Below are positions 34,914 to 44,277 of a stretch of 64,000 bases of DNA, in pieces. The position numbers were made by a program, and so were the translations under genes. Source of the stretch: Candidatus Heimdallarchaeota archaeon (GTDB lineage: Archaea > Asgardarchaeota > Heimdallarchaeia > JABLTI01); contig DXJV01000059.1 of NCBI GenBank assembly GCA_019056785.1, positions 62,297 through 126,296 of the forward strand, written 5' to 3'. The notes below the pieces were generated by a model, which had not been told where the DNA came from, made no database searches, and worked only from the letters and a program-made list of their open reading frames with translations. Position 1 is the first letter of the stretch. Every line of letters begins with the position of its first letter.

Positions 34914-37880
34914 GTGTGTGAGTTAATTATGAGACGTGGAAGAATCCTCTCATTAGGTTTATTAGCTCTCTTTCTTTTAGGAGCATTAACTCCTTTTGTA
35001 CTTACTAAAGCAACGATTCCTGAAAGTGAAGAGAGTGACACAATCATTTTCCGTCAGCAAATTGTAGATGCAAACGGAGATAAGATTGAAGATAAACTAA
35101 TGAGAACAATTGAAAACCAAGATGATTACGTTGTGGATGTGGTTTTGACCTTTAACCACAAAATCACCGATTATGACCTCACCAAATTGGCACGAGCTGG
35201 CGTTACCGTTTCAAAGGAAATTTGGAGCATGGGGCATAAGGTCAAGGTTTCAACAACAATAAATAATATTGAAACCTTAGCAAACTATCCAGATATTGAA
35301 CTTGTTTCTTCAGCAGAAATTCGTTATATTATGGTGGCAATCGATGGTGATGACTACTCAGATCTCGCGGCACTTGAGAAATACGATGCTGAGATCTTCT
35401 GGGGAGTGGGTTGTGCACTTGTTCGCTATTACTCAGGCATAGAAGATGATATCAAACTTTTGGGTGATTATACTGCCATCCAAGATACTACTGATATCCG
35501 ATTTACAACACAAGTACTAGAACCCGAAGAAACAGAAGTCACAATAAATACTCTGCATACTGCGCAAACAATTAATGCAACAGGGATGTGGGATTTGGGC
35601 TTTGATGGTTCAGGGATAAAGGTGGGGGTAATTGATTCTGGTATAAATCAAAATCATGTCGACTTTAGTGGGCGTGTAATAAATGTTCAAAGCTTCATCA
35701 AAGTTGAATATGGATACGATGAAGATGACACAACCCCCGATGATGTGGATGATCACGGTCACGGAACGCATGTTTCCGGAACAATCGCAGGTGATGGAAC
35801 TGCAAATTCCAACTACATCGGAATGGCACCTCAAGCATTAATTTATATGGCAAAAGTAGGCTCGACTGCAACTCTTCAAGCAATAATTGCAGCTCTTGAT
35901 TGGTTAGTGAACACCATTAAAGTTAAGACAATTAATTTTAGTATGGGTGCTACTGACACACCTGGAGAGACAATCTCAGAAATTGCTTGGAAGAATGCCA
36001 TTCGAAATAAAAAAGTCGTTTGTGTTACTTCTGCAGGAAATGAAGGAGATAATGGCTATTACACAATGGGCGCTCCAGCAGCTTTAGCAGATATCATTGC
36101 AGTTGGTGCAGCAGATGACACTAGTTCACCTGTTTCTTTTGCTTATTTCACTTCTCGGGGACCAACAGCTGATGATCAAGTAAAACCCGATGTTCTCGCA
36201 CCTGGTTATGCGATTTGGGCACCAGCACATGATAGTAATACTGGTTATAGAGAATTGTATGGTACTTCAATGGCTTCACCACACGTCACTGGTGCTGTTG
36301 CTTTATTAATCGAGGCATGTCAAAGCTCAGGGATTGCATATAATCCTGGACTGATTAAAGCAGCATTAATGAAAACAGCTGAGTCTATCAATGTCGACAT
36401 TTTAACCCAAGGTCGTGGTGTTATCAATGTCGGAAAAGCTTGGACATATATTTTGCATGCTCCTACAGTTGACTCTTATCGACTTGTTGGCACTTCCATT
36501 CCTACCGTTGAACCTCTCTTCTGGTGGGAGGACCTTCTCCAAGGACAAGTGACAGAGCAATACCTTACATTTGTTTCACCTTACAAAGTTAATCTTTCAA
36601 TAGAAATTACTGGCGCAGCTGCAAGCTTTATTACATCAGAAGTTATTCGAACCCATTGGTCCACAGTCTATAAAGTGACTTTTAGCATCCCCTTAGATAC
36701 TACTGTGGGTCACTACACAGGAAGTATTGACTTTAAATATAATGATTATGTCTTGGAAACCATCTCTATCGATTTCAATGTTGTCGCAAGTAATGGTAAA
36801 CGAATGCTCTTGAATTACGGAACTACAGATTGGGGTATAGACCATATGTATGGCCAATACCGCCATTTTAGTGCAGACATTTTAGATAACAAATACGTTA
36901 TAAGCGAGCAAAAAACATCCTTAGACTCCGGCATTTTGGATAATTATGAAGCAGTCTGGTTGCCTGATCCCTTTTCATTAGACTTCCCAAATGCTTATCA
37001 AGGAGATTACAATGCTACGACTCCAACTGCTTGGACTGAAAGCGAACGAACTGCTTTAACACAGTTTGTTTCAAATGGCGGAACCGTTTTCATCTGTTTC
37101 CTTGGACCAAACGAAGAAGATATAGAAGGATTCGGTACAATTGTTACAGGGACAAATGTTTCCACTATCAATGAATGGACAATGCAATATGGCATTGAAG
37201 CTCGTCATACCTATTTCACCAAACCAACACCAATTATTGTTCATCCAAATGGAAGTCATCCAATAACATATGGTGTCACAGGTGTTGATCACTATGGAAC
37301 ATCCTTGAAAATCTCTGGCGATGCGGTTAATGTTGTTAAAGTGGCTGAAGGGTCAAACTATGCTACTTTGGCGGTTTATCAGCATCCTAATGGTGGACGT
37401 GTCATTGTCTGGACAACCAATTTTGCTCTTGATAGTGAAGGGTACAAAAACAAATACAATGGTATCCTTACACAAAATGATGTCCTCGGTCGGAACCTAG
37501 TCCGGTGGGCATTAGCAAAACACCGAATACAAAGAACTAACATTACAGTTGAAAAGAAAACTGTAACTCTTACCTATAAATATCTCAGCGGTCCTGGCGC
37601 AGACTTTAGCGGCAAAGTGAGTTTCCCAGATGGTTCTGAAGAAAGCCTTACCTTCACTGATATCGGTAATGACCTTTGGCAAACACAATTCGAAGCCGGA
37701 AAAGAAGGACTCTATGACATTCTAGTCGAATGTGGCCCCTCTGGCACAGACGATTTTGATTATTACCAATTCAATTTCGCCAAATCCGGTGGTATTGGTA
37801 TCAGTCCAATTGTCGTTGTTTTACTCACCAGTTTTGGTTTAGCAGCTTGGTATCTTGTTCAAAGATTCCGACGAAAATAA
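34914..37880 (+). CDS. Secreted, membrane-anchored subtilisin-like serine protease (S8)
   Basis: Catalytic triad motifs VIDSG, HGTHVSG, GTSMASPHVTG and oxyanion SAGNEG; signal peptide, C-terminal accessory domains, TM plus RRK tail. Confidence 0.95.
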   Translation: MCELIMRRGRILSLGLLALFLLGALTPFVLTKATIPESEESDTIIFRQQIVDANGDKIEDKLMRTIENQDDYVVDVVLTFNHKITDYDLTKLARAGVTVSKEIWSMGHKVKVSTTINNIETLANYPDIELVSSAEIRYIMVAIDGDDYSDLAALEKYDAEIFWGVGCALVRYYSGIEDDIKLLGDYTAIQDTTDIRFTTQVLEPEETEVTINTLHTAQTINATGMWDLGFDGSGIKVGVIDSGINQNHVDFSGRVINVQSFIKVEYGYDEDDTTPDDVDDHGHGTHVSGTIAGDGTANSNYIGMAPQALIYMAKVGSTATLQAIIAALDWLVNTIKVKTINFSMGATDTPGETISEIAWKNAIRNKKVVCVTSAGNEGDNGYYTMGAPAALADIIAVGAADDTSSPVSFAYFTSRGPTADDQVKPDVLAPGYAIWAPAHDSNTGYRELYGTSMASPHVTGAVALLIEACQSSGIAYNPGLIKAALMKTAESINVDILTQGRGVINVGKAWTYILHAPTVDSYRLVGTSIPTVEPLFWWEDLLQGQVTEQYLTFVSPYKVNLSIEITGAAASFITSEVIRTHWSTVYKVTFSIPLDTTVGHYTGSIDFKYNDYVLETISIDFNVVASNGKRMLLNYGTTDWGIDHMYGQYRHFSADILDNKYVISEQKTSLDSGILDNYEAVWLPDPFSLDFPNAYQGDYNATTPTAWTESERTALTQFVSNGGTVFICFLGPNEEDIEGFGTIVTGTNVSTINEWTMQYGIEARHTYFTKPTPIIVHPNGSHPITYGVTGVDHYGTSLKISGDAVNVVKVAEGSNYATLAVYQHPNGGRVIVWTTNFALDSEGYKNKYNGILTQNDVLGRNLVRWALAKHRIQRTNITVEKKTVTLTYKYLSGPGADFSGKVSFPDGSEESLTFTDIGNDLWQTQFEAGKEGLYDILVECGPSGTDDFDYYQFNFAKSGGIGISPIVVVLLTSFGLAAWYLVQRFRRK

Positions 37881-38055: not shown

Positions 38056-38421
38056 TTGATGTCGTTTGAAGCTGAAGCAGCAAGATTACAAAGAGAAGGA
38101 ATTGTTGGTGCACTCGCACTTATTGGTGCTGATGGGCAAGTTTATTGGCAAACACCCAATTGGCAGGTGGATGGTCGGTCAATTATCGAGGCTTGGACGA
38201 AAAAAGCCCCCTGGGTAGTAGTCCAAGGAGTAAAGTATTCTACCATTGATATCACTAACAACAGGTTAATTTGTACTAACGTTCAACAACAGGGACATGT
38301 CATCATTGCGAAAACACCTTTCTGGCAAGGATTTGTAATGGCCTGGTGTTCACCCGCAAACCCAGTAAGGTTAATTTATGTTGATGTTGCAAAACTGGCA
38401 TCAACAGTAAAGCCCGGTTAA
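38056..38421 (+). CDS. Profilin (Asgard type)
   Basis: 121 aa; N-terminal helix, ALALIGADGQVYWQ, VVVQGVKYSTI, LICTN..QGHVIIAK, C-terminal helix. This is the profilin fold pattern (cf. eukaryotic AAI.G.DG..WA and GxKY). AGGAG SD upstream; start is TTG 38056 or ATG 38059. Confidence 0.85.
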   Translation: MMSFEAEAARLQREGIVGALALIGADGQVYWQTPNWQVDGRSIIEAWTKKAPWVVVQGVKYSTIDITNNRLICTNVQQQGHVIIAKTPFWQGFVMAWCSPANPVRLIYVDVAKLASTVKPG

Positions 38422-38473
38422 ACTCGAGGGCTCATACCGCCTTGGCTCTTTCCTCCCTCTCCTTTTTTATTCT

Positions 38474-41400
38474 TTAGCCTGTTTCAAAAATATTTTGACT
38501 TATGTCTTCTTTTTCTTGTACAAAAATAGTCCCTTTTTCTACTACTTTAATTTCTGAGAGATCAATACCTGTCACATTCATCTGGGTGAGGTATTTGCCA
38601 TATTCTTGAAGGGAAGTGACCTTTTTACCGACGATAAGTGATTTTAAGATATTGTGCGTACAAAGTGAGTCTTTAAAGTTCACACCAATCGCCCCCATGA
38701 CTGATTTTGAAATATCATCCATAACTTCCTTTTCGACAGTTGCATTTGTAAAAAGCATGGCAATTTCCCTCGAGAGTTTTTCACTGATGAGAAGTACCGG
38801 CTTATCAGAGAGTGAGATACCAAGGCTCATGCCGAGATGTCTTCCGGATAATCCTCTTACGCGAAGGCAAGCTAAGGGATAAACTTCGCTTGGATGGAAG
38901 AGTCGACTAGCATTTCGGAGAATAACTTTTGATTTTGTTTGTTTCTCGATCGCTCCCCCCGAAGCGAACATCCTGAAGGAATTTAAAATTTCATGTGGTA
39001 AGATGGGGAAGTAACGCTGCAAAGAATAATTGATTAAAGTCTTCGGTTTTAAAGCCTCGCCTTCTGGAATGCGCAATTGTTTTGCAATGAGGTATTTTAG
39101 CAACCAAACTCTTTCTTTAGGATTTTCTTCTGTAATCTCTAATCTTTGAACAAAATAGTCGACCAATGACAGGTCAGGCACGCCGGTATTTATAAGGAGC
39201 AATTTTCCAAGTAAGGGGTGAAAGACAATGGCAATTATTTTTCCGATTTTTTGTCCTTGGCTGTAATAACAATCTTTGCCGATAGGCGTATGTTCTTCAG
39301 TAACCAGTTTTCCATCCCAGGGAGCGGTTCGATAAGGTTTCAAAGGAAGAATGGCATTTTGTTGGCAAACAATCATTCCTTGTTTTATGCGGATTTTGTC
39401 AACAGGTAAAATGCCAATTTGCTCCCGGTTGGGGGTGGCAATTTCATTTGGATAGTTAATATTTCTAAAGTTGGCAAATTCTTGTAATCGTGTTGTATGG
39501 AGTGCCACATCACGAGTCACACGGAGGGCTTCTACAACTTCATTTATAACGTACTCCTTCCGTTTTTCAGCAGATTCGAGGTAATCTTCAGTGATCCAGA
39601 GGGGTTTTATCTGATCAAAAATCCTATCAATAATAGCTTGGTTTGCAGAGGATTCAGAAACAAGCATAAAGCCTAAGTGATTTTTATCGAAAATAACTAC
39701 CTCTTGAATGTAGCCTTCAAAATTTCTTTTTGCGTTATCTTGAAGTGTGAAAACAGCTTTCCCTGCAAGCTTCCATGCTTCTGATGACGCCTCAACAAGC
39801 TTTTTCGTAATCATAGATGTTCGTTGTGGCTTTATAAGGTCCACCGAGGTTTGTACTTGTGCTTCTTCTGCTGGTGGGGGCGGAGGCGGTAGGGGTTCTG
39901 GTTTTACTTTATCTTTAACAATTATCTCTTCAGTTAGCTCATCAATAGGTCGTTCTATGGCTTTATGTGCAACTTCAATTGCGGGTGCTTTTTCAGGTGG
40001 CGGTGGTGGTAGTGTTTCTGTTTTGGCAAAGTCTGTTGGCATATCTGGCGGTGGGGGTGGCAATCCTTCTTCTTCGGGCGCTGCACTTTTTTCCGTCGGT
40101 GGGGGAGGAGGTGGAAGGGTTTGTGGTGGTGGCGGTGGGGGGAGAGACTCATTTGCTGAAGAACTTTCTTCCATAACAACTTCATCTGTTAGCTGCTCTA
40201 GGCTATCTGTACTAGCTGGCTGTGCTATTGAGGAGTCTTTTTGTCCCAAGCTTTTCTTAACGAGGTCGCTTTTAAGAGGGGCGAATTTTACTTTTCGTTT
40301 TACCTTTGGCTTTTGTTCTTCAGGAGCCATTTCAGCTGGTGGTGGTGGGGTTGTTGGAGTTGTGGCTGTTGTCCCTGCAGCTGCTGGAGTATCACTGCCA
40401 TTATCAAGCAGTTTTTCCAATAGACCTTCAAAAGATTGGAAAATGATTTGCTTTGTAGCATCATTAATTTTATCACTCGAAGTAGCATAGACTTCGATGG
40501 GTGAATTAAACTCTTCTAATCCACCAATAACTTCGATGTCAACATTTGGCTGAAAAACAACTTCGGGTGTTTCTGGGATTACAAATTTGTCTGTTGGTTC
40601 TTCTTCTTGTTTCTGTTCCAAAGCATCTTGCTCGGTAGTTAAAGAGGAATCTATGTCTATTAAAAACAAGCCGATGTGGTCCGAGCTTTCTTGTTCATCT
40701 ACTATTGTTTTTAAGAAGGGGTCTATCTCTTCTGAATGTTGAGTGCCAGTAGTAGTTTCTTGGGTGAGTGTTTCAATTCCAAAATCCATTGGCTCAGAAA
40801 ACTCGAGTGATTCATCGATAGAAAGAACATCATCTTCTTCCAATAGTGAAAGACATTTCGAATATTCTCTAATATCTTCTGCTAACAGGGAAATATAATC
40901 TTTAATTTCATTGATCATTTGCTGGTAATCCAACAAGGACTTAAAGTCTGGCAAACCATTTTTTTGTTTGCTGACACTAATCTCCATTTGGGAGGTTTTC
41001 ATGGTCGCCAACATTTCAGCTAAAGTGCGTCGATACTCTTCTCGGAGTTCAATCTCTTTCTTTAGATCCCTAGCAATTTCCTTCAGTTCATTTTCATTTT
41101 TAATGCCATGACCAAAAGAGAATTTTTGATAGTTTTCAAGGGCAAAGCGAAGTAAATCACCTTTTGAAGGATTGCGTTTCAGATATTTTTCCCGGGCACC
41201 ATAGCGGTTTTCTGCAAGTCGCAGATCAAATTCAAGGGTTTCAAGTTTCACACTTGCAGCTTCAACATTAACTTTCTTTTCAGCAATTAATAACTTCAAT
41301 TTGTGGATGTTATGTTTGAGTCCTTCAATGTTTTTTTCCAATTCTTTGATTTCGCGCCGGATTTTCAGGTGGCGGTAAAAATGACGGGGGATATTAAAAG

Positions 41401-41632
41401 TTGGCAACAAATCTTCTATTGTTATTTTCCCCATAAACCGTTCTACACTGAACGGGATTTCTTTATTTTGGACTGCAAGCATGAATTCTTTGTCAGTCAA
41501 TTCTTCAGTTCTTCGCAATTGTTGCTCATAGATTTGCATCTTTCGTTCAAAAGTCTCAGAATCAATTTCCTCGAGGGCATATTTTTTCTCCAATTCCATG
41601 ATTTTTCTGAGGATAACAATTCTGTCTTTCAT
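38474..41632 (-). CDS. Large coiled-coil / polyproline / PRC-barrel-repeat protein
   Basis: N-terminal heptad-rich region, acidic disordered region, five LPPPPP(P) motifs, three C-terminal repeats starting with PRC-like L.GK.V....G..IG.I patterns. Confidence 0.8.
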   Translation of the reverse strand: MKDRIVILRKIMELEKKYALEEIDSETFERKMQIYEQQLRRTEELTDKEFMLAVQNKEIPFSVERFMGKITIEDLLPTFNIPRHFYRHLKIRREIKELEKNIEGLKHNIHKLKLLIAEKKVNVEAASVKLETLEFDLRLAENRYGAREKYLKRNPSKGDLLRFALENYQKFSFGHGIKNENELKEIARDLKKEIELREEYRRTLAEMLATMKTSQMEISVSKQKNGLPDFKSLLDYQQMINEIKDYISLLAEDIREYSKCLSLLEEDDVLSIDESLEFSEPMDFGIETLTQETTTGTQHSEEIDPFLKTIVDEQESSDHIGLFLIDIDSSLTTEQDALEQKQEEEPTDKFVIPETPEVVFQPNVDIEVIGGLEEFNSPIEVYATSSDKINDATKQIIFQSFEGLLEKLLDNGSDTPAAAGTTATTPTTPPPPAEMAPEEQKPKVKRKVKFAPLKSDLVKKSLGQKDSSIAQPASTDSLEQLTDEVVMEESSSANESLPPPPPPQTLPPPPPPTEKSAAPEEEGLPPPPPDMPTDFAKTETLPPPPPEKAPAIEVAHKAIERPIDELTEEIIVKDKVKPEPLPPPPPPAEEAQVQTSVDLIKPQRTSMITKKLVEASSEAWKLAGKAVFTLQDNAKRNFEGYIQEVVIFDKNHLGFMLVSESSANQAIIDRIFDQIKPLWITEDYLESAEKRKEYVINEVVEALRVTRDVALHTTRLQEFANFRNINYPNEIATPNREQIGILPVDKIRIKQGMIVCQQNAILPLKPYRTAPWDGKLVTEEHTPIGKDCYYSQGQKIGKIIAIVFHPLLGKLLLINTGVPDLSLVDYFVQRLEITEENPKERVWLLKYLIAKQLRIPEGEALKPKTLINYSLQRYFPILPHEILNSFRMFASGGAIEKQTKSKVILRNASRLFHPSEVYPLACLRVRGLSGRHLGMSLGISLSDKPVLLISEKLSREIAMLFTNATVEKEVMDDISKSVMGAIGVNFKDSLCTHNILKSLIVGKKVTSLQEYGKYLTQMNVTGIDLSEIKVVEKGTIFVQEKEDISQNIFETG
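39870..40352 (-). repeat. Polyproline-coding low-complexity tract (LP5/LP6 x5)
   Basis: GGN-rich runs on the + strand encoding SLPPPPPP, TLPPPPPP, GLPPPPP, TLPPPPP, PLPPPPPP and TPPPP. Confidence 0.9.
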
Positions 41633-41836: not shown

Positions 41837-42601
41837 ATGAGTTTTGTAGATTGGTACCATAACAACCAGGATTGGATTATGCTTATATGTATGTTTGTTA
41901 CTTTGGCAACAATTCTAACAATCTTTTATTTCCTGAACAAAAAAGGAATGGATGTTTTTTACACCAGAAAGGGGGTTCATATCACTGTTGGTTCCTATAT
42001 TTTCTTTTGGCTCATGGCTTCAGATAACTGGTGGGCAAGATACGTTGCCATGATTCCTGCAGCCCTCACAGCGATTGTTTTTCTTTTTGTCGGTTTGAAG
42101 GTTATCCGTTTTAACTTTCTTGTCAGAAGTATGTCCCGAGATGGCGAGCCGACGGATCTTCTCAAAGGAACATTTATCTATGCTATTATGATGAGTCTTA
42201 TTTGCGCATTTATCTGGCGAGAGCAACCTTGGGGACTAATCGTTATCATGTCTGTTGCTTTTGGGGATGGTATTGCTCCAATAGCCGGGCGGCATCTTGG
42301 AAAGCACAAATACCGGTTAATCAGTGGTGGAGAAAAAAGCCTGGAAGGGAGTCTATTCATGTTTCTCTGTTCTGTTGCAATGAGTTTTCTTATCACCTAT
42401 ATTTTCGGAGTTGTGTTGACAGGGCAAAATTGGCTCTGGGGATACGCAGATTGGCCCTGGCTCTGGGGAAAAATCTTGATTCTTTGCCTAATAGGAACAA
42501 TAGCTGAAGGACTAAGCCCAAGAGATTTTGATAATCTAATAGTACCAGGGGTAATGATTCTGATCTCACTTGCCTTTGGGCTGAAATTTTCTGTCACTTA
42601 A
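41837..42601 (+). CDS. Phytol/dolichol/polyprenol kinase family membrane protein (VTE5-like)
   Basis: TRKGVHI, RSMSR.G.P.DLLKG, AFGDGIAPIAG, KSLEGS, AEGLSP..FDNL. Confidence 0.87.
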   Translation: MSFVDWYHNNQDWIMLICMFVTLATILTIFYFLNKKGMDVFYTRKGVHITVGSYIFFWLMASDNWWARYVAMIPAALTAIVFLFVGLKVIRFNFLVRSMSRDGEPTDLLKGTFIYAIMMSLICAFIWREQPWGLIVIMSVAFGDGIAPIAGRHLGKHKYRLISGGEKSLEGSLFMFLCSVAMSFLITYIFGVVLTGQNWLWGYADWPWLWGKILILCLIGTIAEGLSPRDFDNLIVPGVMILISLAFGLKFSVT

Positions 42602-42636
42602 GAACAAAAAAAAGAAAAAAAAGCGAAGGAAAAACT

Positions 42637-43119
42637 CTAAAGATTTTCAAGGAGATAGAGAAGCTCTTCTTCTAAAGTTTGCTTGTGTTCGGGGTTCTCG
42701 ATCATCTGAGCAACAAGTTTGCCACTGGAGTCTAAAATATAGAAGGTTGGTATTTTTCGCAAATCAAATTCATTGACTTCAAGAGGAGAAGGTGGTACAC
42801 GCCATCGGACATCAAGATCAAGGGGCGCTGATTTTAGCCCTTTGAAGAAAATTGCATCGATTTCTGGTTCAAGTTCTAACATTTTTGCAAAAGCTGAGAC
42901 ATTAGTCTTGCAATCTTTACACCAATCCGCTGAGAAGACAACAAAAGTATATCCTTTCGCCTTTTCAGCAAATTTCTTGAGAACATCAACTTTTGGTTGA
43001 TAGTTTTTTATGTTCTCTTTGATGATTTCACCATCTTTCCCGGAGAGTTTTTCGACCATTTTTTGAATTGTAAGGCCATTTTTTCGAAGTTGTGCTAAAT
43101 CATGTGTTTGCTGAATCAT
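42637..43119 (-). CDS. Thioredoxin-like protein
   Basis: FSADWCKDC active site; IPTFYI cis-Pro motif; ENP. Confidence 0.85.
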   Translation of the reverse strand: MIQQTHDLAQLRKNGLTIQKMVEKLSGKDGEIIKENIKNYQPKVDVLKKFAEKAKGYTFVVFSADWCKDCKTNVSAFAKMLELEPEIDAIFFKGLKSAPLDLDVRWRVPPSPLEVNEFDLRKIPTFYILDSSGKLVAQMIENPEHKQTLEEELLYLLENL

Positions 43120-43275
43120 TAGTATTACCTTTTTAAATTAGTAAAAAAAGTTCTTTTCTTTTAATATATCTTCTCTTTTATTTTCTAAAAAAGAAACCCC
43201 AGGTTGCTATAGAAAAAGGAAAGACGATTTTTTCCGCAAAGCAACGGAAAAATTTTAAGGAGAGAAAAAAGAGAC

Positions 43276-44277
43276 TTGACAAGAATCGTGAGAGGAACAA
43301 ACTTGTCAGATTATTCCTATACCCCTGTAGAGTTAGACTTGTTTCTAAAGCAAGTCATAAAATCAAAATTGGCGATTAATATCTATAAAGAATTATTAGC
43401 AAGTGGTGGAGAAACAGCTTTTGGTATTTCGGATGCTCTTAAAGCAAAAGGATTGCGCGCTTGCAAAACAAGAGTCTACGAAGAAATTGCTTATCTCCAG
43501 AAATTGGGCTTTATCAAACGTCTGTCCCATCGACCACCAATTTATACAACCATTCATACGCCCGAAAATCTCGAGAAAATCGCAAAGCGTTTCTTTATTA
43601 AATCTAGAGAAGAATTAATGGAAAAATGGGCCGCAGTGTACCCGTTTTTACCACGAGAGCAAAAACAAAAAAATCAAGAAGAAATGGAAGATGACCAGAG
43701 TGTTTCTTTGTTCAAATTTAACCCTTTCCCTATTGTGGATATCTTTTACGACTCCCACTCAGGGTTAAAACGACTATTTTATAAAGTATACGAGTCCTCG
43801 GAGATTCTTATTTGCAATTTTCTTGTGGATACGTGTATGAATGGTGCCTTGTTCATCAAGACAATAAGTGAAGATCTTCCAGCCTTTCTTAACCATTTAG
43901 AAAACACTACCAGTCGCTATGGGAAAAAAATCCAAATGAAAACATTAACCAATACTTTTTCAGAAGAGTTAAAGACTATCTGGAAATTTAAGGTGCTTCC
44001 ACCAATCCACAAAAAGATTCTGAGTTATATTGACTACGAGCTTCGGGTATTGGAAGTACCAATTATGAGTTTTATACTGGGAGAAGACACTATCTTCTAC
44101 CCAATAGGTCCGGGGGGAATTATCAACAAAACCTCAATATTACTTGAAATGAAAGATGAGGAGCTTATTGATAACGCACAGTTTACTTTCGAAACAGCTT
44201 GGCAAAAGTCCCAAACAGTCATTAAAATAATCGATGGAAAAATAATAAAAGAACGCGATTTGAATTTTGATAGTTAA
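43276..44277 (+). CDS. TrmB-like HTH transcriptional regulator
   Basis: IYKELL..G.ETA..IS...KTRVYE.I..LQKLGFI.....RPPIY winged HTH; C-terminal F...W ending typical of TrmB effector domains. Confidence 0.72.
   Translation: MTRIVRGTNLSDYSYTPVELDLFLKQVIKSKLAINIYKELLASGGETAFGISDALKAKGLRACKTRVYEEIAYLQKLGFIKRLSHRPPIYTTIHTPENLEKIAKRFFIKSREELMEKWAAVYPFLPREQKQKNQEEMEDDQSVSLFKFNPFPIVDIFYDSHSGLKRLFYKVYESSEILICNFLVDTCMNGALFIKTISEDLPAFLNHLENTTSRYGKKIQMKTLTNTFSEELKTIWKFKVLPPIHKKILSYIDYELRVLEVPIMSFILGEDTIFYPIGPGGIINKTSILLEMKDEELIDNAQFTFETAWQKSQTVIKIIDGKIIKERDLNFDS

Follow-up and report, generated by a model that had tools for sequence, protein, structure and literature searches.

Here we describe a gene pair in a 64,000-nucleotide stretch of Heimdallarchaeota DNA (contig DXJV01000059.1; hereafter the window), formed by a profilin gene and a convergent gene for a 1052-aa scaffold protein, which carries five Leu-Pro5/6 tracts in a disordered linker and three PRC-barrel-like domains at its C-terminal end. 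The reading that we favor, with a probability of about 0.45, is that a profilin-recruiting motif resembling those of FH1 domains and VASP, and not homologous to them, was grafted onto an older profilin-associated scaffold. The two proteins would then be a functionally coupled pair, whose coupling predates the organism's own family (f1) and is independent of proline; within f1, the linker would have expanded and gained from one to five L-P5-11 motifs, usually followed by Glu or Gln. Among possible native ligands of an archaeal profilin, the scaffold is the strongest candidate to date. Near-identical proteins come from metagenome-assembled genomes (MAGs) named "Candidatus Heimdallarchaeota" by their sources, placing the organism in the Heimdall group.

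The original prediction, made from the letters of the window, described a profilin gene and a convergent gene of 1052 aa whose stops lie 52 bp apart, and both open reading frames (ORFs) were found as described. The ORF finder reported the profilin frame at 38056-38421 (+), with 121 codons including a TTG at 38056. The likely start is the ATG at 38059, one codon further on, which gives a product of 120 aa plus the stop; a GGAG lies ∼9 nt 5' of it, and all profilin orthologs start with M-[ST]-F, in agreement with this ATG. A phmmer search of the PDB matched residues 2-116 to the Odin profilin 5ZZA_P (E 4e-22), with further matches to the profilins of Thor (7PBH, 1e-12), Heimdall LC3 (6YRR, 3e-8), and Loki (5ZZB/5YED). 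With a profile of the profilin family, the solved structures 5ZZA (3e-26), 7PBH (1.5e-17), and 6YRR (7e-11) were recovered. The Pfam Profilin family (PF00235) matched over profile positions 10-118 of 127 with E 1.3e-4 and a score of 22.5 bits, which is under the gathering cut-off of 25, and one close homolog has a precomputed PF00235 match. Judged by these matches, the small ORF encodes a true profilin of the Asgard type. No second profilin was found in the 2.87-Mb, 82.5%-complete assembly. A bona fide actin (442 bits) is encoded there as well, on contig C5.

The tracts of the scaffold read SLP6, TLP6, GLP5, TLP5, and PLP6, with leucines at positions 497, 506, 524, 541, and 581. They span 91 residues (aa 497-587), confirming the cluster of five L-P5/6 motifs within ∼90 aa that had been noticed in the window, and the cluster proved unique even genome-wide. 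Proline runs of five or more occur in nine ORFs of a six-frame scan of the whole assembly, all others having at most two runs each, and the DNA pattern for [L/F]-P5 has five matches in the genome, all inside the scaffold gene. In FH1, VASP, and WASP proteins, the established binding motif for profilin is a Pro5 run preceded by Leu, Gly, Ala, Ile, or Ser (Reinhard 1995, as cited in PMC8410842).

We considered whether the proline runs might be an artefact, produced by composition or slippage in a low-complexity stretch, or the ORF might be no real gene, and find this barely credible. The linker is indeed proline-rich (22.7% Pro) and fast-evolving, but in 200,000 shuffles of the linker (154 aa) five runs of P≥5 never arose (the maximum was three), which, together with the uniqueness in the genome, excludes chance as the origin of the cluster. 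All four proline codons and four different leucine codons are used in the tracts, and Tandem Repeats Finder detected no tandem repeat in their DNA, indicating that the tracts are kept at the protein level and not by DNA slippage. Moreover, the ORF is full-length in 30 homolog clusters, and its C-terminal part was modeled with high confidence.

These 30 homolog clusters, of ∼1000 aa and all annotated as "hypothetical protein," come from Heimdall-group MAGs. One or more tracts of P≥5 stand at the same linker position in 21 of them, in surroundings that are only 15-25% identical; the expectation that orthologs would keep the tracts thus held for these 21 and failed for the remaining nine. Leucine precedes 26 of the 32 tracts, compared with 7.8% Leu among the non-Pro residues of the linker, and the residue after a tract is mostly Glu or Gln. 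The scaffold of this window has the most tracts among the homologs. On a tree built without the linker, the deepest branch (P0029) has a tract, and the pattern requires at least four changes, suggesting most simply that the tracts are ancestral in the family and were repeatedly lost. Such behavior is consistent with a short linear motif on which selection fluctuates, as the number of tracts in formin FH1 domains likewise varies between eukaryotic orthologs.

Other proline runs were observed in passing. ORFs with RTP5-6 lie on contigs C57 and C84 of this genome. A sister species whose scaffold is tract-less (G008:C117, L069:598-1533) encodes a protein of 312 aa that begins and ends in zinc ribbons, has a transmembrane (TM) segment, and carries the motifs TLP6, TLP6, and RTP5; it may be a second, membrane-anchored polyproline carrier.

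Linkage of the two genes was assessed with a profile of the triple-PRC module, which we searched across the phylum; a single-sequence search had missed the homologs in family f2. The profile matched 11/11 genomes of f1, 14/31 of f2, and 21/22 of f3, plus five families outside the class. In f1, profilin is convergent with the scaffold gene in all 11 genomes that have the scaffold, a count that says little, as the genomes of the family are collinear over more than 15 kb in this region. Outside f1, profilin stands directly beside the triple-PRC gene in f2, where the two are divergent (head-to-head; on one contig in 11 genomes, four of which were checked at the ORF level), in f32 and f29, where they are convergent (tail-to-tail), and in f33, where they are co-directional with the scaffold upstream. 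Direct adjacency therefore occurs in five Asgard families and in three gene orientations, and that the genes have stayed neighbors in three arrangements, while their sequences diverged very deeply, strongly indicates that profilin and this scaffold family are functionally connected. The genomic linkage proposed in the original prediction is thus conserved far beyond what had been expected; it is old and probably functional.

Adjacency might also arise with no meaning for actin if the scaffold belonged to a different process, such as cell division, where it would act like CdvA or CdpB1/2. We regard this as rather improbable. The best structural matches of the PRC module are indeed the division proteins CdpB and CdvA, local synteny within f1 is uninformative, and in f3, f24, and f25 the triple-PRC homolog is not near profilin (in the closed f3 genomes G076 and G077 the two are >1 Mb apart). 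Against this, immediate adjacency in five families and three orientations would be very unlikely without selection, and the only LP5 cluster of the genome sits in exactly the protein that neighbors profilin.

Further genes recur around profilin in other families. The profilin gene of f2 and f4 has as further neighbors a DUF167/YggU gene (PF02594, E 1e-18) and the gene of a helical protein of ∼190 aa that is conserved and has no Pfam family (L058:1861-2745 in G060, and also L051, L054, L056, and L060-L066), whereas in f3 the DUF167 gene follows the triple-PRC homolog on the same strand. The genome studied here has its DUF167 and 190-aa genes together on another contig (G000:C84:88532-89351; L067, L068). 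The DUF167 gene thus stands beside one or the other member of the pair depending on the family, which hints at an older neighborhood of three or four genes. A relationship of the ∼190-aa protein to the scaffold N terminus was considered and dropped (BLASTP E ≥ 1). In f6, the neighbor of profilin is instead a 416-aa TPR-like protein (L049:1999-3246, L050:133-1380), and no triple-PRC relative was found at E ≤ 1e-5 in any of the three f6 genomes.

We then compared the profilin with those whose polyproline binding has been studied. Residues Gly-27, Tyr-30, and Trp-31 are invariant in its family and align with Gly-49, Tyr-52, and Trp-53 of heimProfilin LC3, which shift in nuclear magnetic resonance (NMR) spectra upon VASP peptide binding, Trp-53 being the equivalent of human Trp-31/32 (PMC8410842). 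The Tyr-Trp pair is hence common to this profilin and the polyproline-binding LC3 protein. The Thor profilin, the other reported polyproline binder, also carries the tryptophan (Trp-53; bioRxiv 10.1101/2021.08.06.455371), which aligns at the same position and, as in LC3, is a contact residue. In its place stand Thr in Loki-1 and Loki-2 and Tyr in Odin, all of them reported as non-binders. Of the human polyproline-binding platform (Trp-3, Tyr-6, Trp-31, His-133, Leu-134, and Tyr-139), the eukaryotic Trp-3 has an invariant Phe-3 at its place, and Leu-134 a valine. The profilin differs from those of LC3 and Thor in having no N-terminal extension; it is as compact as the Odin profilin and nearest to that type. 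The distinction drawn in the original prediction between a Heimdall binder and Loki-type profilins needs qualification here: the organism belongs to the Heimdall group and its profilin keeps Trp-31, unlike those of Loki and Odin, but its closest match is the Odin profilin, a reported non-binder. The sole hint of co-variation with the tracts is a single event, a Y30H change in the profilins of the tract-less f1 clade G001/G008/G010. A complex prediction of profilin with linker residues 488-597 gave no verdict (score 0.00, no controls) and is evidence neither way.

Several observations weigh against a docking role of the tracts. The profilin-linked relatives in f2, f29, f32, and f33, which are 590-880 aa long with much shorter linkers, have no run of P≥3, and the general coupling of the two proteins can therefore not be polyproline. 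Within f1 itself, the nine homologs that have no P≥5 tract reflect at least four independent losses. The profilin has a short C-terminal helix with no equivalents of human His-133 and Tyr-139. Tryptophan at the position of human Trp-31 is class-wide (in most families) and not tied to the polyproline family, so that there is no co-evolution signal between this residue and the tracts. According to the account in PMC8410842, which cites Akil and Robinson 2018, the profilins of Odin and Loki do not bind the VASP peptide, and the affinities of Asgard profilins for polyproline are weak (dissociation constants of 0.3-3 mM; PMC8410842). Finally, the convergent orientation in this genome means that profilin and scaffold are not co-transcribed. 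Polyproline is thus not the basis of the conserved linkage: the tracts are confined to f1, are missing in part of it, and are absent from the linked relatives elsewhere. On these comparisons, they are a later innovation of one family, laid on an older association that rests on something else. The class-wide occurrence of the [L/F]-P5 DNA pattern was at background level, like that of a reversed-pattern control, and several of the matches inspected were out of frame; hence, no hidden polyproline partner was found near profilin in the other families.

The same observations suit another explanation, in which profilin and scaffold are functionally linked through folded regions of the latter (its helical bundle or its triple PRC module) and the tracts are stiff polyproline II spacers or ligands of a different partner, possibly the SH3-like PRC barrels of the scaffold itself. 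This is a possible account, which we hold less likely than profilin docking. It would accommodate the linkage in four further families devoid of proline runs, the survival of the gene pair in f1 through four or more losses of the tracts, the lack of a family-specific change at the profilin tryptophan, and the non-binding reported in PMC8410842 (from Akil and Robinson 2018) for compact profilins of the Odin type. A spacer role, however, leaves unexplained why Leu so regularly precedes the tracts and Glu or Gln mostly follows them, an arrangement that matches the profilin-ligand consensus. No other known reader of proline motifs was detected in the genome either: a six-frame Pfam search gave no WH1/EVH1, WW, SH3_1, or GYF domain above cut-off, leaving profilin as the only recognized reader detected, although the sensitivity of such searches is limited and one of the same kind missed the genuine profilin.

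We examined the architecture of the scaffold with AlphaFold2 (AF2) models of its folded parts and a conservation profile. The N-terminal region, which is 50-66% identical among orthologs, is predicted to contain long helices at residues 83-117, 123-153, 180-220, and 230-266, with predicted local distance difference test (pLDDT) values of 80-95 over most of aa 1-266. The coiled-coil dimerization region put forward in the original prediction would correspond in the model to a long-helix bundle, whose dimerization is conjectural. Foldseek returned only generic helical bundles for it (E ≥ 0.09) and no specific fold relative, and a feature search of the ESM Atlas with the same model gave no usable match. 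The linker that follows, of ∼330 aa, is acidic and proline-rich and is the least conserved part of the scaffold (15-40% identity, with a few small conserved islands). It was modeled up to aa 445 and is predicted to be disordered there, with pLDDT <50 at residues 268-364 and 411-445; the tract region falls outside both folded models.

About 40 aa upstream of the first tract, the linker contains a conserved linear motif, K-F-A-P-L-K-S-D-L-V-K-K (aa 448-459), with the family consensus F-x-x-L-[ST]-x-[DE]-[LIV]-K-K. The motif is found in all 30 homologs, including the tract-less ones, and the deepest homolog has it without the two final lysines. Many orthologs read DLKKT here, which is reminiscent of the LKKT of WH2/thymosin; the resemblance is partial. 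No WH2 match was obtained with Pfam for aa 266-599 at E ≤ 10.

The C-terminal region (aa 600-1052) was modeled at a pLDDT of 89 and a predicted template modeling score of 0.87 as three β-barrels, each with a helical insert. All three barrels were matched by structures of the same family (Table 1), a further PRC match of the module being 3htr (Z 6.7); the top Foldseek rows were CdpB1/CdpB2 (8qzo), and PRC families dominated the ESM Atlas rows. In the model, therefore, the module is made of three PRC-barrel folds; the Z scores are moderate, and the same fold family was obtained for all three repeats. Pfam, including PF05239 (PRC-barrel), gave no family for aa 600-1052 at E ≤ 10. DivIC, HECT, SMC, and GvpG, which appeared in Pfam and NCBIfam searches with the whole protein and its three parts, were rejected as noise far under the cut-offs. 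A shorter protein of ∼536-549 aa, whose C terminus matches the triple-PRC profile at its last PRC barrel and insert (E 1e-6 to 1e-10), occurs genus-wide (G000:C70:29234-29791, outside the window; G007:C15, G003:C169, G008:C82, G010:C24, and G005:C22) and is, from this match, probably a paralogous PRC-barrel scaffold.

As in formin FH1 domains, several X-P5+ tracts (here with X = Leu) stand in a disordered region next to a folded module that may oligomerize. In contrast to formins, the scaffold has no FH2 domain (no Pfam match at E ≤ 10), and its C-terminal 453 aa are three PRC-like barrels instead of a helical FH2 tether; homology is not implied. With Ena/VASP and WASP/WAVE it would have in common a proline-rich, candidate profilin-recruiting segment on a scaffold with helical segments of an oligomerization type, and its short, basic, conserved motif at aa 448-459 is close to the tracts, much like the G-actin-binding motifs in VASP and WASP. 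It differs from them in domain order and folds, and EVH1/WH1 was found neither in the scaffold nor over the cut-off in the genome. The "proto-FH1-like" factor of the original prediction is thus at most a functional analogy, with FH2, EVH1, and WH2 domains all missing from these searches.

Archaeal PRC-barrel proteins were compared as well. CdvA of Thermoproteota consists of an N-terminal PRC barrel, a coiled coil, and a disordered C-terminal tail with an E3B peptide that recruits ESCRT-III. The scaffold resembles it in combining PRC barrels, a helical region, and a disordered segment with a short motif that would attract a cytoskeletal partner. It departs from CdvA in having three barrels and not one, each split by a helical insert, in its reversed domain order, and in the absence of detectable sequence homology; moreover, the proposed partner is profilin and not ESCRT-III, and in place of an E3B-like tail the scaffold ends in its third barrel. 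CdpB1/CdpB2 of Archaeoglobus fulgidus (8ONW, 8QZO) gave the best structural matches, although a Z of 7-8 is within the range of common-fold matches. PRC barrels that polymerize or heterodimerize are known from archaeal division (bioRxiv 10.1101/2023.03.28.534520). The CdpB proteins are small, single-barrel, and tied to SepF and FtsZ, whereas the scaffold has its three barrels in one chain of 1052 aa.

Under the reading that we favor, the tracts would act as profilin docking sites, as in formin FH1, Ena/VASP, and WASP, so that profilin, alone or with actin, would accumulate at the sites to which the folded modules bring the scaffold, such as a polymer, a membrane, or the division apparatus. Such placement would resemble that of the PRC-barrel proteins CdvA and CdpB in other archaea. 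A more specific version, in which a polymerizing triple-PRC scaffold related to neither formins nor VASP is an actin-assembly or actin-targeting factor of Heimdall-group archaea and in f1 feeds profilin-actin through its L-Pro5-6 sites, we put forward only tentatively and consider doubtful.

Polyproline control of profilin before eukaryotes is disputed. As presented in PMC8410842, Akil and Robinson 2018 found no binding and Survery et al. 2021 found weak binding, and both used a human VASP peptide, no native archaeal ligand being known to that account. Our literature search found no paper describing the scaffold, the profilin/triple-PRC gene pair, or a native archaeal polyproline ligand. At the present locus there is a concrete candidate for such a ligand, with peptides that are defined, encoded beside its presumed reader in the lineage closest to eukaryotes, which makes the question directly testable with two recombinant proteins. 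New here are the polyproline cluster, its distribution at the family level, and its being secondary to the linkage, and the deep profilin/triple-PRC pair suggests that the Asgard actin system has a component not yet described. If docking occurs, polyproline-guided recruitment of profilin would be native to archaea, whether ancestral or independently invented, and the scaffold might connect the actin system to division or membrane machinery based on PRC barrels.

Table 1. Positions of the profilin-scaffold gene pair and its parts in the window
Feature	Position	Strand	Basis
Profilin gene	38059..38421	+	PDB profilin matches; single match in own genome; GGAG before ATG
Spacer of 52 bp between the convergent stops, with the T-rich stretch ccttttttattcttt	38422..38473	.	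Sequence read
Scaffold protein gene, 1052 aa, no Pfam or NCBIfam family	38474..41632	-	
PRC-barrel-like domain 3 with helical insert, ∼aa 920-1043	38504..38875	-	A. fulgidus CdpB PRC domain 8onw_A Z 8.0; AF2094 2kk4 Z 6.3
PRC-barrel-like domain 2 with helical insert, ∼aa 774-914	38891..39313	-	RimM PRC domain 7cq1 Z 7.9; MTH1859 1pm3 Z 7.3; reaction-centre H subunit Z 5.7
PRC-barrel-like domain 1 with helical insert, ∼aa 615-759	39356..39790	-	CdvA 9s9g Z 5.5; FlgD-type barrels; model residues 16-160 (VIA-align)
Disordered acidic, proline-rich linker, aa 267-599	39836..40834	-	AF2 pLDDT; conservation profile
Tract 5, L581-P587 (P-L-P6-A)	39872..39892	-	
Tract 4, L541-P546 (T-L-P5-E)	39995..40012	-	
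Tract 3, L524-P529 (G-L-P5-D)	40046..40063	-	
Tract 2, L506-P512 (T-L-P6-T)	40097..40117	-	
Tract 1, L497-P503 (S-L-P6-Q)	40124..40144	-	
Conserved linear motif, aa 448-459	40256..40291	-	In all 30 homologs
N-terminal helical region, aa 1-266	40835..41632	-	AF2 model; conservation profile

The genes on either side of the pair were also recorded. Directly upstream of profilin, at 34914-37880 (+), lies a gene for a 988-aa subtilisin-like (S8) protease with an N-terminal signal or TM segment and a C-terminal TM anchor, which is collinear with the pair across f1. Beyond the scaffold gene, the window encodes at 41837-44277 a 254-aa polytopic membrane protein, a 160-aa thioredoxin-like protein, and a 333-aa TrmB-like regulator. 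These three genes are equally collinear across the family, so that synteny within it discriminates little.

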